From: Cellvibrionales bacterium
Lineage (GTDB): Bacteria; Pseudomonadota; Gammaproteobacteria; Pseudomonadales; UBA7239
NCBI GenBank assembly: GCA_043769275.1
Contig: JAYVJM010000007.1
Coordinates: 1 to 56,001 of the forward strand
DNA: 56,001 bases
Reading direction: 5' to 3'
Part shown: positions 4,422 to 9,264 of the stretch, piece by piece
Layout: every line of letters begins with the position of its first letter
Position numbering within the stretch: position 1 is the stretch's first letter
The notes under the pieces: model-generated
The model's input: only the letters and a program-made list of their open reading frames with translations
Told to the model about the DNA's origin: nothing
Databases searched by the model: none
Position numbers and translations under genes: made by a program

Positions 4422-6245
4422 ATGAAACGTTTTTTTTTCCTATTTTGGCAGGTGCTGACGTACCTACGTGGTGTTTTTGCCAATCTGCTAACGCTACTCA
4501 TCGTTGTTTTTTTACTTTATGGGATTCTTGGTCATGAAGATGAGATTACTATCCCGAAAGAGGCTGTGCTGTACGTTGATCCAGAAATGATCGTCGAGCA
4601 GCGCAGTAGTTTTGTTAACCCGCTTGAGCGTTTCACCTCTGGAATGCCCAGCGAAACGGTGTTACGCGAATTGATTTCAGCGATTCAAAGTGCTGCAAAT
4701 GACGATCATATTAAAGCGATGGTCATCAATATCGACAAGTTAGGCGGCAATGATCTGGCCAAACTAGACAGCGTTGCACAAGCTATCTCGACCTTTAAAA
4801 AAAGTAAAAAACCGGTCATTGCCATAGGGGATAATTTCAGCCAAGGCCAGTATTTTATTGCAAGCCAAGCCGACAAGATTTATCTCAACCCGATGGGTAG
4901 TGTACACATTTCTGGATTTTCAGCTTATCAAAACTACGCAAAAGAGTTATTGGATAAGCTGGCTATTAAGGTGCATATATTTCGAGCAGGCGAATTTAAA
5001 TCATTTATTGAGCCTTTTGTGCGCAATGATATGTCTGTTGCCGCGCGTGAAAACCTGCAACAGTGGATGGATCAGCAGTGGGCGCATTACGCAAAAACTG
5101 TAGAGAAAAACCGAAAACTCCCAGTAGGCGCTGTAAACAACTACGTGAGTACACAAAATACGCTACTGGCTAAACATGCCAATAATGCTGCGGCAATGGC
5201 AAAAACCTATGGCCTAGTTGATGGTCTTGCTACGCGCGTAGAAGCTAAAGCGCTGGTTGATGCCTTGGTCGCTAAAGCACCGGCCGCAATGGTGGATATT
5301 GATCTTTACTCCCAGCATCTTGAGAACAAGAAAAGCACCTTTAGCATCTTGAAGGATAGACAGCGTATCGCAGTTATTTACGCAGCTGGCGACATTGTAG
5401 AGGGCGACCAGCCTGCCGGTGGAGTCGCCAGTTCAGAAGTCCTTATTGGGCAAATACATTCAGTCAATAAAGATGAACAGGTTGCGGCTGTTGTGTTACG
5501 CATTGACAGCCCAGGTGGCAGCGCATTTGCTTCTGAGCTCATTCGCACGGAACTGGTGGCTCTGCAAGCATCAGGCAAGCCTTTAGTGGTTTCTATGGGC
5601 GGCGTTGCGGCTTCTGGTGGCTACTGGATCGCCGCCAGCGCGGATGAAATTTGGGCGCAGCCGAGCACCATCACAGGCTCTATAGGCGTATTCGGCATTA
5701 TTCCAACCCTAGAAAAAACCCTCTCGAATCTAGGTGTGCACAGTGATGGCTACAGCACAGTTGCACCGAATGACTCCGTGCAGCTTGACCGCCCACTAAG
5801 CCCAATGGCCGCGCAGGTGATGCAACAAGGCGTCGATTTTACCTATGCGGAATTTTTGCGCGTCGTGTCTGCAGGGCGTAAAAGTACGCCCGCTGAAATT
5901 AACCGCATTGCACAGGGTCGCGTATGGACGGGCACGCAAGCACATGCGCTGCATCTTGTTGATCGATTAGGTGATTTGGATGCTGCCATTCTTTCAGCCG
6001 CACACCTGGCCAAGCTCACGGATTATAAAGTTGACTATATAGAGCCGACCATGAGCCAGTGGGAAATACTTTTACAAGGCTTCACGACGCAAACCCAACT
6101 CGGGCTTAAAAAGTTTTTGGGTAGCCAGCTTACTCAAATTATGAGTGCTCTAGCACCGCTCCCTGTACTTTCACACATACAAAGTATGAATGACCCCAAC
6201 CATGTTTATGTGCGCTGTTGGGAGTGCAGTGCGCCACTGCGCTAG
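4422..6245 (+). CDS. sppA: Signal peptide peptidase SppA (67K type)
   Basis: N-terminal anchor, GEFKS (Lys), LRIDSPGGSAFASE, VSMGGVAASGGYWIA (Ser), ITGSIGVFG, AQGRVWTG. Confidence 0.96.
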   Translation: MKRFFFLFWQVLTYLRGVFANLLTLLIVVFLLYGILGHEDEITIPKEAVLYVDPEMIVEQRSSFVNPLERFTSGMPSETVLRELISAIQSAANDDHIKAMVINIDKLGGNDLAKLDSVAQAISTFKKSKKPVIAIGDNFSQGQYFIASQADKIYLNPMGSVHISGFSAYQNYAKELLDKLAIKVHIFRAGEFKSFIEPFVRNDMSVAARENLQQWMDQQWAHYAKTVEKNRKLPVGAVNNYVSTQNTLLAKHANNAAAMAKTYGLVDGLATRVEAKALVDALVAKAPAAMVDIDLYSQHLENKKSTFSILKDRQRIAVIYAAGDIVEGDQPAGGVASSEVLIGQIHSVNKDEQVAAVVLRIDSPGGSAFASELIRTELVALQASGKPLVVSMGGVAASGGYWIAASADEIWAQPSTITGSIGVFGIIPTLEKTLSNLGVHSDGYSTVAPNDSVQLDRPLSPMAAQVMQQGVDFTYAEFLRVVSAGRKSTPAEINRIAQGRVWTGTQAHALHLVDRLGDLDAAILSAAHLAKLTDYKVDYIEPTMSQWEILLQGFTTQTQLGLKKFLGSQLTQIMSALAPLPVLSHIQSMNDPNHVYVRCWECSAPLR

Positions 6246-6316
6246 TTTACCAACAGGGAATTATTGTGATGAGTGATTGTCTACAGTTCTCCATTAGCCG
6301 AAACTTGGAGTTACTT

Positions 6317-7183
6317 ATGCAATTATTTGCATCTCTCAAGACCCTTTTGGGGACGATTTTTTTGCTGTCGACTTTTACCATATATGCTGGGCCCACTCAC
6401 TATTGGATCGATAATACGCACGTATCACCTAACCAAGATGCGCGCGTTAGGCTACTGGTGCTTGGCACAACGGAAACAAAAAGCACGCAAGAGGCTTTAG
6501 ATATATTTATGAATCCTAGCTTGGAAAGAAGCGTTCATTACTTAGTTTCAGATACGCCAGACCCTCAGCACGGTGATGTGGTTGCGGTTTATCCGCTTGT
6601 TCCAGAAGCTGAGTGCGCTTGGAGCAGCGGTGTTAGTTGCGCTGGCAGCAGAAGGAATGTCAACCCCAGTGCCATAGGTGTTTGGAGCCAGCACCAGAGT
6701 TTTGAGACTGGAACAGGTGCTTTAAAGAAAACGGCAAAACCATGGCCAGATGAGCAAGTCGCCGCCTTGGCGGAATTGGCTAACAACATTACCCAAGGAG
6801 CAAAAATCTCGCCTAGGTGGGTCTGGAGCTATTCTGAGGTTAAAGCAATGACGGATGGCTTTGCGCAGGTCATTCTTCCATGGGAGAAGCTGCATAAAGA
6901 ATATGGTATTGGTGCTTGGCCGAAGGAAGAAGACGTGCAACGCTACCAAGCTGAACAAGCAATAACGCGCACGGATACGACGGAAGGCATCAAAACACTT
7001 CAGCAAAAATTGCGCAAGTGGGGTTACACCGGTGTAACGGTCAATGGTGAGATGGATAAAATGACAAAAAATGCAATTATCGCCTTTCAGTTGCACTATC
7101 GGCAGAGCAATTTTGATGGTGTGCCAGACCCTGAAACAATAGCTATTCTGTATTCGCTGCTAGAACAACATCCAAACCAATAA
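6317..7183 (+). CDS. AmiD-like Amidase_2 plus peptidoglycan-binding-domain protein, catalytic residues degenerate
   Basis: Colinear with AmiD (RVRLLVL, SVHYLV, LVPE..AW..GVS, PWEKL..GIGAWP, WGY, IAFQLHYR..DG.PD.ET.AIL..LL); GGAG RBS before ATG 6317; hydrophobic N-terminus. Confidence 0.85.
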   Translation: MQLFASLKTLLGTIFLLSTFTIYAGPTHYWIDNTHVSPNQDARVRLLVLGTTETKSTQEALDIFMNPSLERSVHYLVSDTPDPQHGDVVAVYPLVPEAECAWSSGVSCAGSRRNVNPSAIGVWSQHQSFETGTGALKKTAKPWPDEQVAALAELANNITQGAKISPRWVWSYSEVKAMTDGFAQVILPWEKLHKEYGIGAWPKEEDVQRYQAEQAITRTDTTEGIKTLQQKLRKWGYTGVTVNGEMDKMTKNAIIAFQLHYRQSNFDGVPDPETIAILYSLLEQHPNQ

Positions 7184-7197
7184 GGGGTGGCACGGGC

Positions 7198-7232
7198 TCC
7201 TCTCTTGCTGCGATTGCCAGCACAAGAGAGGA
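7198..7232. terminator. Hairpin between convergent genes
   Basis: TCCTCTCTTG-CTG...CAG-CA-CAAGAGAGGA inverted repeat. Confidence 0.6.
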
Positions 7233-7246
7233 ATGTCTGTTCGGCT

Positions 7247-7726
7247 CTAGCCAGAAGAAACAGCAGCATGGTTGCCGTGTCTATAAATGACTTCTAAGGG
7301 TAAATTTCGCCCAGCACGGTAATCATCAATTACCTGCAAAACCAGTGGGCTGCGCAACTCGCCCGCCTGCTGCTTTTCGCAGATAGTGGCGTAATCTAGC
7401 CATACCGCCGCATGTATGCCCTCATCCAAAGGCATGTTGAGCCGCTCAAGTGCCTGCCCAACGAATGCCACACGTAAATACGTAAAGCCGTTGCTGGGCG
7501 CAACATAACTGTAAAGCCCCAGCCAATAGCGCAACTCAACGCGCCACGCTGTTTCTTCTTGTGCCTCGCGTATGGCGGCATCTAATAGGCTTTCGCCTTC
7601 ATCCCAATGGCCGGCGGGCTGGTTATAGACCATTCGGCCTCGGTCTTTATCCCATTCATGCACCAGCAAAAACAGGCTGTTTTCTTCAACAACAGTAGCA
7701 ACGGTAACGTGTGGAACCCAGTTCAT
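7247..7726 (-). CDS. nudJ: NUDIX hydrolase, NudJ-like
   Basis: PHVTVATVVE, NQPAGHWDEGESLLDAAIREAQEET Nudix box, TYLRVAF, LRSPLV. Confidence 0.85.
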   Translation of the reverse strand: MNWVPHVTVATVVEENSLFLLVHEWDKDRGRMVYNQPAGHWDEGESLLDAAIREAQEETAWRVELRYWLGLYSYVAPSNGFTYLRVAFVGQALERLNMPLDEGIHAAVWLDYATICEKQQAGELRSPLVLQVIDDYRAGRNLPLEVIYRHGNHAAVSSG

Positions 7727-7767
7727 GCAGCCTCCTGTTGAGACTCAAAATTATTGAATTTGAGCCA

Positions 7768-9264
7768 TCAAACCCTGTACTGTGCCAAAAAATTTGCGTC
7801 AAAGTGTTGTTCTAGGCTATCCGCCAGTCGGTTTAAGTCAGCTTCTTGTTGCGCATGGTAGTCAAAGTGTTCGATATCAGCCAAGCCTGCCCACTTTAGC
7901 AAATGCTGTAAAGACTGCGGATCGTCAAATAAGCCATGCACATAACAGCCGAGTATTTGGCCGTCCTCAGAGGCCGCCCCATCGTGGTGATCGCCCAGAT
8001 CAAGCATCGGTTTTTCCAGTGCCGTGCCGCTTGTCGCGCCACAATGAATTTCGTAGCCAGACACACGCACATCGCCACTTCCCGCACAGAAAACACCTTC
8101 CACGCGCAACAGCTTTTTCTCTTGTTCCAGAGTGGTGTGCATGTCAAACAATCCCAAACCTTGAAGTGTGCCGGCTTCGCCTTCAAGTCCGTATGGGTCC
8201 GCAATGGTTTTACCCAGCATTTGAAATCCGCCACAAATGCCAATAAGTTTTCCACCGTAACGCAGGTGCTTTTGCAGCGCGATATGCCAATCTTGCTTGC
8301 GTAAAAAATCCAGATCACCGCGCACACTTTTGCTGCCAGGTAAAATGATTAAATCCGCCACAGGCATTTTTTCACCCATGCGTACGAAGGTTAGATCAAC
8401 TTGCGGATGCAGGCGTAGCGCGTCAAAGTCGGTGTGATTGCTGATACGTGGCAGAACAGGAACTGCCACACGTAAACGCTCATCGCTGTGTTTTTTTACT
8501 TGCTCTGCGCTGATGGAGTCTTCTGATTCTAGGTGCAAGCCGTGCAAATAGGGCAGTACCGCCAGCACTTTCTTGCCTGTACGCTGTTCTAGCCAGTCTA
8601 TGCCAGACCTTAAAAGGCTCTCATCGCCACGAAATTTATTGATAACAAAACCCACTACACGCTGTTGTTCCGAGCGGCTGAGCAATTCTAGCGTGCCATA
8701 CAAATGCGCAAATACGCCACCGCGATCAATGTCCGCTACGATAATAACGGGACAATCAACCGCTTCGGCAAAGCCCATATTGGCTACATCACGGTCACGC
8801 AAATTAATTTCAGCGGGGCTTCCGGCACCTTCCACAATAATCAGTGCATATTGCTGCTGTAAGCGCTGAAAAGAGTCCAGCACGTAGCGCATGGCTTCGG
8901 TTTTATAGTTGTGATAAACCCGTGCGTCCATATTGCCGATGGCGCGACCGTGCACAATGATCTGCGCGCCTGTGTCGGTATTTGGCTTGAGTAATATAGG
9001 GTTCATGTCCGTATGCGGCGGAAGAAAACACGCCTGAGCCTGCACCGCCTGCGCACGACCGATCTCGCCGCCATTCACGGTTACCGCACTGTTCAGTGCC
9101 ATATTTTGCGGCTTGAACGGCGCAACTTTCATCCCGCGCCGAGCAAACAAACGACACAAGCCCGCCACCAGCGTGCTTTTGCCTGCATCGGATGTTGTAC
9201 CCTGAACCATCAGGCAGTTGCTGGCTTTAAATTGTGCCCGATCAATACAGTTTGAAGCTCGCAT
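7768..9264 (-). CDS. cobQ: Cobyric acid synthase
   Basis: [66 protein letters not shown]. Confidence 0.97.

Follow-up and report, generated by a model that had tools for sequence, protein, structure and literature searches.

The gene and its product

The window analysed here, a 56,001-nucleotide stretch of the Cellvibrionales bacterium assembly GCA_043769275.1 (contig JAYVJM010000007.1, positions 1 to 56,001), carries on its forward strand, at 6317..7183, a gene whose product, P0001, is an AmiD-like amidase homologue that has lost its catalytic centre. The open reading frame comprises 288 codons and a TAA stop, is intact throughout, and is preceded by a Shine-Dalgarno-like GGAG at 6307..6310 on the same strand, six bases 5' of the ATG at 6317 as read from the sequence; the initial annotation had likewise described the frame as intact and full length. 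The same Met serves as the start in the gene call of the allele P0002, discussed below. We regard the combination of a dead active site and a retained binding domain in P0001 as solid; its function is a prediction from sequence.

Both domains expected of an AmiD-like protein were found above the Pfam cut-offs, in agreement with the two-domain assignment made initially. Amidase_2 (PF01510) occupies residues 41-167 (6437..6817, forward strand; E 2.3e-10, 41.4 bits, cut-off 26), and in the alignment to AmpDh2 the structural domain reaches to about residue 200. PG_binding_1 (PF01471) occupies residues 222-278 (6980..7150, forward strand; E 5.1e-13, 49.4 bits, cut-off 23). A phmmer search against PDB sequences returned AmpDh2 (4bol, 5.3e-25), AmiD (2bh7, 5.9e-24) and AmpDh3 (4bxd, 4.5e-20), each aligned nearly end to end over about 245-265 residues, at an identity of only 27-30%. 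This full-length likeness, with its Amidase_2 plus PG_binding_1 architecture, links P0001 to Escherichia coli AmiD (2bh7, 3d2y) and Pseudomonas aeruginosa AmpDh2/AmpDh3 (4bol, 4bj4, 4bxd), which are periplasmic zinc N-acetylmuramoyl-L-alanine amidases. P0001 also possesses AmiD's extra loop before the 'Y-LVPE' strand.

The structural comparison leads to the same proteins. An AlphaFold2 model built from a 79-sequence alignment reached a mean pLDDT of 86.6 and a pTM of 0.83, with low confidence at residues 1-30 and 133-136. Foldseek matched it to AmiD, AmpDh3 and AmpDh2 with E values of 2e-19 to 3.6e-18 and TM values, normalised to target length, of 0.79-0.85; AmiD 2bh7 matched at E 2e-19 with a TM of 0.83 and AmpDh2 4bj4 with a TM of 0.84, so the suggested superposition on AmiD holds. 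Matches to AmpD (about 1e-4) and to animal peptidoglycan recognition proteins (PGRPs; E 0.02-0.08) were far weaker.

The N-terminus resembles a signal peptide (residues 1-24, 6317..6388, forward strand), with Lys8, a hydrophobic stretch at 10-22 and then 'IYA' followed by 'GP'. With the cleavage site placed by eye, P0001 is predicted to be exported by the Sec route and cleaved after Ala24. The AmpDh2 lipobox 'llagc' pairs with 'iyagp' of P0001, and Pro26 stands in the column of the lipobox Cys, as had been proposed.

Loss of the active site

Six near-invariant active-site residues are all replaced in P0001: His50Gly, His103Ser, Glu123Trp, His172Tyr, Lys180Asp and Asp182Phe. In the alignment to E. 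coli AmiD, with all positions on the forward strand, Gly50 (6464..6466) takes the place of the first zinc-binding His ('vlvihyt' against 'llvlgtt'), Ser103 (6623..6625) that of the His of AWHAG ('awhag' against 'awssg'), Trp123 (6683..6685) that of the conserved Glu of SIGIE ('sigielen' against 'aigvwsqh') and Tyr172 (6830..6832) that of the second zinc-binding His ('vvahadi' against 'vwsysev'). Asp180-Gly181-Phe182 (6854..6862) replaces the Lys-x-Asp that includes the zinc Asp ('rkddpg' against 'tdgfaq'). Every substitution listed in the initial annotation is therefore present, and the alignments to AmpDh2 and to E. coli AmiD agree that P0001 has none of the three zinc ligands and neither the catalytic Glu nor the conserved Lys. 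Taken together with the missing AWH His and lipobox Cys, these losses set P0001 apart from AmiD, AmpDh2 and AmpDh3.

Across the 79-sequence alignment, conservation reaches at least 90% in each of the six columns, and the full canonical pattern occurs in 82 of 106 co-aligned database matches of at most 450 amino acids. The six-residue pattern of P0001 was found, among these 106, only in P0001 itself and in P0002.

In Amidase_2 enzymes the Glu of SIGIE, the Lys of RKxDPG and the His of AWHAG have catalytic roles. The zinc ligands of E. coli AmiD are H50, H166 and D176 according to PMC5543032, which also describes how Wolbachia AmiD is inactivated by a single alanine replacement of a ligand, H79A or D207A; the premise that catalysis depends on these ligands is supported to that extent. 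Judged by its residue losses, P0001 is predicted to be unable to cleave the MurNAc-L-Ala bond.

Relatives and distribution

When 1.84 billion representatives were searched exhaustively with HMMER, P0001 had 1197 matches at E ≤0.001, and the sole close relative among them was P0002 (288 amino acids, 92% identical), which has the same six substitutions. The next-best match is 38% identical and has a canonical active site. None of the 87 pattern stretches matched when a metagenome collection was scanned with P0001 encodes a relative. One source labels P0002 'N-acetylmuramoyl-L-alanine amidase', a label that is almost certainly wrong as a statement of activity.

The source genome (1.94 Mb, 108 contigs, 92% complete) encodes, on another contig, a normal AmpD of 184 amino acids with all motifs. 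Outside the family, 25 genomes of the same order were searched, and one has a canonical homologue of 34% identity. In the tree of the 79 aligned sequences, P0001 and P0002 group (SH-aLRT 93) with AmiD-like proteins of Luteibacter, Pandoraea, Aeromonas and unnamed Pseudomonadota, and the gene may have been acquired by transfer.

Two further proteins have degenerate sites. At the six positions, P0128 (277 amino acids, from a 1141-base contig) reads Gly, Cys, Trp, His, Arg and Ala, and P0038 (356 amino acids, from a short public contig) reads Phe, His, Ala, His, Ser and Ser. Their occurrence among the 106 aligned matches means that active-site loss recurs in the AmiD-like family. P0128, which shares with P0001 its Gly and Trp in the first-His and Glu columns, was placed apart from P0001/P0002, on a long branch, in two free trees; a clade uniting them was not rejected by the AU test (p 0.70), the constrained tree being 17 log-likelihood units better, and long-branch attraction is possible in this placement. 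Both P0128 and P0038 are rich in Asn, Cys and Ser and lie on long branches.

A proposed non-catalytic peptidoglycan binder

We propose, with a probability of about 0.6, that P0001 is a non-catalytic periplasmic binder of peptidoglycan. It would be a Sec-exported, soluble periplasmic homologue of the AmiD/AmpDh2 amidases, with Gly, Trp, Tyr and Phe filling the former metal centre, and it would be able neither to hold the catalytic zinc nor to activate water; it should therefore not cleave peptidoglycan by the mechanism of its family. With Trp, Tyr and Phe in place of Glu, His and Asp, the metal pocket may have been plugged or turned into an aromatic surface. The PG_binding_1 domain would anchor the protein to peptidoglycan in a non-enzymatic manner, and the remodelled amidase domain would provide a scaffold or a new surface that evolves fast. 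Peptidoglycan binding, the absence of any activity and a present-day usefulness of the protein are what we infer from these features.

One may ask whether P0001 is still an enzyme, having relocated its metal site or adopted a metal-free mechanism, perhaps directed at a different bond. New polar or nucleophilic residues do lie close to the old site in sequence, with Tyr172, Glu174, Asp180, His126 and Cys100/Cys108 as the candidates, and P0001 retains the fold together with part of the SxHY and N116 positions. Yet the five mechanism residues are all gone together, their replacements include bulky aromatic residues, and the former Lys/Asp loop differs even between alleles that are 92% identical. 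Such a new enzyme seems to us very unlikely.

Returning to the non-catalytic binder, the evidence that it has been kept for long comes in part from a broken paralogue of the gene in the same genome, on the minus strand of contig C98 (L005) at about 81-432. This copy, 44% identical to P0001 over 71 residues and most similar to it, shows in order a signal segment ending in 'VYAGT', a frameshift near 320, 'VVGITDT' (Gly for His) and 'AWCSA', and is then cut at about base 105 by a contig-end repeat. It has AWC where canonical proteins have AWH. Both copies have the extra loop, Gly where the first zinc His would be, and a Cys-less signal end 'YAG'. Since both of these now only 44% identical copies have the Gly and the Cys-less signal, catalysis was lost before the duplication.

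The stem branch leading to P0001/P0002 has a length of 1.39 changes per column. End branches have a median of 0.66, the nearest canonical sequences lie at 0.41-0.95, and a quick tree with nine trait columns masked gave a stem of 1.45. A frame of 288 codons that is open in P0001, and open in P0002 over all 270 codons covered, has persisted along this long stem, which argues for selection over the long term. Part by part, the conservation is very uneven. The PG_binding part of P0001 has a median identity of 0.369 to 75 canonical proteins, against 0.372 among those proteins themselves, 42 of the 75 having values equal to or higher than that of P0001. The amidase part has a median identity of 0.288, against 0.457 for the canonical proteins, none of which falls so low, and is the most divergent of the 76 compared. 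The initial description of scaffold and C-terminal domain as well conserved consequently stands for PG_binding_1, at the level of the family, and has to be withdrawn for the amidase domain. Overall, a long-term retention of P0001 by selection is supported.

Recent evolution and possible gene decay

Several observations weigh against the view that P0001 is a retained binder. The 75 canonical proteins share 56 columns with a conservation of at least 85%; P0001 has replacements in 20 of these, mostly around the active site, and as a consequence muropeptide binding in the old groove is doubtful; besides the six residues above, the family positions affected include A104, W109, S119, I122, V125, D174, P177, R179, P183, G184 and F187. 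No match to P0001 was found in 15 other genomes of the family, each of which yielded one Amidase_2 match of AmpD size, so the protein is dispensable for that group. The sister copy on C98 has already been destroyed by its frameshift and an IS630-like insertion, and the source genome holds at least 26 matches to the IS630-like repeat, as well as other gene remnants. The last of these points concerns the two alleles. Compared by the Nei-Gojobori method over 270 codons, P0001 and P0002 differ by 25.5 nonsynonymous and 6.5 synonymous changes, a dN/dS of 1.09. Codons 146-270 contribute 24.5 nonsynonymous and 5.5 synonymous changes (dN/dS 1.17); codons 1-145, with one of each, give a value of 0.29 from too few changes to read. 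Between the same strains, the adjoining 351 bases of sppA show 7 synonymous changes and no nonsynonymous one (dN/dS 0). The gene differs from sppA in its ratio of nonsynonymous to synonymous changes (Fisher p 1.1e-4) and does not differ from the neutral expectation (Fisher p 1.0). A dN/dS of about 1.1 fits relaxed selection as well as it fits diversification of a surface. The initial annotation had called for a dN/dS below 1 and had named neutral evolution of this copy as a ground for abandoning its proposal; the value of 1.09, available for the single other allele, touches that ground and has to be weighed, and is softened by the observation, given below, that the changes avoid conserved positions.

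Most of these points are what one would expect of a gene in decay, its function lost with catalysis or later and its frame still open merely for lack of time. Besides the allele comparison with sppA, the broken paralogue, the repeat matches in a 1.94-Mb genome and the absence from the 15 relatives searched, a gene remnant with an in-frame stop, described below, lies 3.6 kb upstream; the 32 changes between the alleles give little power, and by a rough estimate about one in four neutral cases would keep an open frame. Against decay stands the age of the dead state, which precedes the duplication and spans the stem of 1.39, a period over which 288 codons need selection to stay open. The PG_binding domain, conserved as in working enzymes, is likewise hard to reconcile with it, as are the mere 2 differences in the 435 bases of the 5' half and the positions at which the alleles differ. 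We consider decay unlikely, though it is the main alternative to our reading. What had been put forward as retention under selection is thus upheld for the long term, by the loss shared with the paralogue, the stem length and the conservation of PG_binding_1, and is not upheld by the recent dN/dS.

One mobile element recurs in this genome. Matches to the IS630-like repeat include positions 1-105 of L005 and 1500-2215 of L037, and many of the 26 lie at contig ends; transposase fragments read 'MGYSQDLKKRVL...', 'FLDETGF...' and '...LPPYSPPLNPIEKLW...'. The copy in L037 is split across several frames, and L035 contains a shortened form. This pattern suggests an expansion of the element, which would also explain the fragmented assembly. 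The remnant mentioned above, at 2290-2746 of the window, is the N-terminal part of an amidohydrolase gene (Pfam Amidohydro_3/1, profile positions 1-54 and 1-63 only) with an in-frame stop at 2386-2388. It ends beside a minus-strand frame of 34 amino acids, 2642-2746, which resembles the N-terminus of the IS630-like transposase, and we conclude that this is another gene destroyed by the element.

The allele differences themselves are far from evenly spread. Sequencing runs containing the gene account for 20 rows in 14 studies. The DNA of P0002 was taken from contigs of the public run X7, one of which, 1235 bases long, spans 5892-7126 of the window; it differs there at 38 substituted bases, has a one-base deletion compensated by a one-base insertion, and translates to P0002 across all 270 codons covered. 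A hot segment on the forward strand at 6752..7040 (residues 146-242) accounts for 27 of the 29 base substitutions within the gene and for 22 of the 23 differences in amino acids, and includes the compensated indel pair; 2 substitutions lie in the 435 bases of 6317-6751 and none in 7041-7126. Along 5693-7800, dS falls from 0.093 at the sppA 3' end to 0.010 over the first half of the P0001 gene and rises again to 0.075 over its second half. Such mosaic divergence suggests recombination between strains, or a local process. The 694 bases after 7126, over the NUDIX gene, show only 2 differences. Sequence pieces from two other runs match the window exactly within the gene.

Two sources of the hot segment were tried and set aside. 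A diversity-generating retroelement was rejected, as the changes are not adenine-specific; over the whole stretch, the substitutions are A>C 7, A>G 6, C>T 11, G>A 7, C>G 4, C>A 3 and T>C 3. Gene conversion from the C98 paralogue is unlikely, with the segment about 10% different in bases and the paralogue 56% different in protein.

Within residues 146-242, the positions that changed are also the more variable ones among the working enzymes, with a median entropy of 3.15 bits against 1.84 bits for the unchanged positions (Mann-Whitney p 9.8e-5). Of the 15 family-conserved positions still matched by P0001, none differs between the alleles; of the 15 it no longer matches, 2 do, both in the former Lys/Asp loop. 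Because the changes fall at positions that vary in the family, the fold of P0001 would still be protected, a point that speaks against decay. The former Lys/Asp loop differs by K176T, T179R and G181D, and 13 of the 19 residues of the interdomain linker (213-231) differ as well. The old catalytic loop and the linker are evidently free to change or driven to change, and recent selection on P0001 is ambiguous.

The same data invite a different functional reading, in which P0001 acts mainly through a protein partner rather than through peptidoglycan and its surface is under diversifying selection: as a decoy or inhibitor of incoming or endogenous cell-wall hydrolases, for instance, or, in a conflict with phages or competitors, as a receptor-like target. 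Charge is gained, lost or reversed at twelve of the 23 amino-acid differences, the linker is heavily altered, and the divergence is sharply local. If the conserved positions of 146-242 are constrained while the segment as a whole has a dN/dS of 1.17, the variable positions must exceed 1. The excess is not significant, since it rests on only 5.5 synonymous changes and the gene is indistinguishable from neutrality. The local pattern, with its rise and fall of dS, would equally follow from the import of a diverged stretch by recombination, and no partner gene is evident among neighbours that are all housekeeping genes. We consider a partner-based function improbable. The labels of the compared runs (leaf litter, freshwater sediment and freshwater) lend no support to a role as a decoy in animal immunity, one of the roles first suggested, nor do they speak against it. 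The amidase inhibitor of the initial annotation is likewise a putative role. Our preferred reading is still that of a non-catalytic peptidoglycan binder.

Neighbourhood and transcription signals

Upstream, a gap of 71 bases separates the start of the P0001 gene from the stop of sppA, which encodes a Peptidase_S49 protein (SppA) of 607 amino acids; downstream lies a convergent NUDIX gene. The wider neighbours are all housekeeping genes (CobQ-like, SecB, glutaredoxin, RF3, UvrA, Ffh and MetG). The G+C content of the gene is 0.48-0.49, and that of its flanks is similar. In the family, sppA orthologues are 55-60% identical, and in the 5 stretches compared none is followed by any of the downstream genes of the window; the position of the P0001 gene is therefore uninformative about its origin.

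Between the two convergent genes, directly 3' of the P0001 stop, there is a strong hairpin (7184..7248, forward strand) of -35.5 kcal/mol (z -4.99), a stability that none of 200 shuffles equalled. It is probably a transcript end; for want of a T run it escaped a simple terminator scan. A promoter scan of 5900-7400 found no sigma-70-like site (shuffles gave a mean of 2.2), and it is only a guess that the gene is co-transcribed with sppA. With a Shine-Dalgarno site before it and a strong hairpin after its stop, the gene is arranged like an expressed one. A single 210-base contig of a metatranscriptome library (run X19) lies inside the gene without a mismatch, and the flanks have no contigs; contigs of this kind cannot show an expression level, and missing cover on the flanks is no finding. 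The contig gives a weak hint of transcription, no stronger because such libraries can carry DNA.

Comparison with known systems and implications

A precedent for the predicted export is the AmiD of Wolbachia, which, according to PMC5543032, has a signal peptide without a lipobox and is thought to be soluble in the periplasm; the signal segment of P0001 likewise has no lipobox Cys. The difference, by the same paper, is that Wolbachia AmiD keeps H79, H187 and D207 and is an active zinc enzyme, so that P0001 by nature resembles its dead mutants.

A second parallel is drawn with the Drosophila proteins PGRP-SA, PGRP-LE and PGRP-LCa (1s2j, 2cb3, 1z6i), which combine an Amidase_2-type fold with a lost zinc site and gave the Foldseek E values of 0.02-0.08 mentioned above. 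In the non-catalytic PGRPs of animals the zinc site was lost and the protein was kept for another purpose, with its binding groove retained. Unlike them, P0001 nests with proteobacterial AmiD-like proteins and not with a PGRP clade, has a PG_binding_1 domain absent from those PGRP structures, and shows heavy replacement of its groove residues. The likeness is hence probably one of principle and not of a preserved groove, given that 20 of the 56 conserved columns are lost and the Lys/Asp loop varies between alleles. It is tempting to go further and to see in P0001 a bacterial equivalent, specific to its lineage, of the non-catalytic PGRPs: a periplasmic, zinc-free AmiD fold whose former catalytic centre forms an aromatic platform (Trp, Tyr, Phe). 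Such a protein would bind glycan strands or muropeptides and leave them uncut, with its exposed surface and linker diversifying under selection through conflict, for example by shielding stem peptides from foreign cell-wall amidases or by titrating such enzymes. We hold this joint picture, conflict role included, to be doubtful and rather improbable.

Inactive relatives of cell-wall hydrolases are established bacterial regulators, such as EnvC/NlpD and CwlM (the latter presumably an Amidase_3 protein), and dead Amidase_2 domains of animals became immune receptors. Mycobacterial CwlM (PMC4946905) and the LytM factors EnvC/NlpD (PMC10268282, PMC9662197) are degenerate hydrolase homologues acting as regulators, and P0001 may by analogy be another bacterial peptidoglycan-hydrolase homologue that lost catalysis and took up a non-enzymatic task. 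These regulators belong to other folds and families (M23 in the case of EnvC/NlpD), are widespread and have known partners, CwlM being cytoplasmic; P0001 occurs in a single lineage, and no partner of it is known.

The practical consequence is that P0001 should not be annotated as an amidase, as it fails the defining catalytic features of its family. In full-text searches of openly available papers, we found no description of a bacterial protein of the AmiD/AmpDh type that has lost its whole catalytic centre. The reach of the finding is limited by a lineage made up of two alleles and one broken paralogue, and by present-day selection that is unproven. Were the PGRP-like picture true, bacteria would have in P0001 their first Amidase_2 pseudoenzyme that serves in protection or sensing. 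If it indeed binds the cell wall without cutting it, P0001 would be a natural 'substrate-trap' AmiD for studies of peptidoglycan recognition, and its lineage would have taken, inside bacteria, the same evolutionary route as the Amidase_2 domains of animals.

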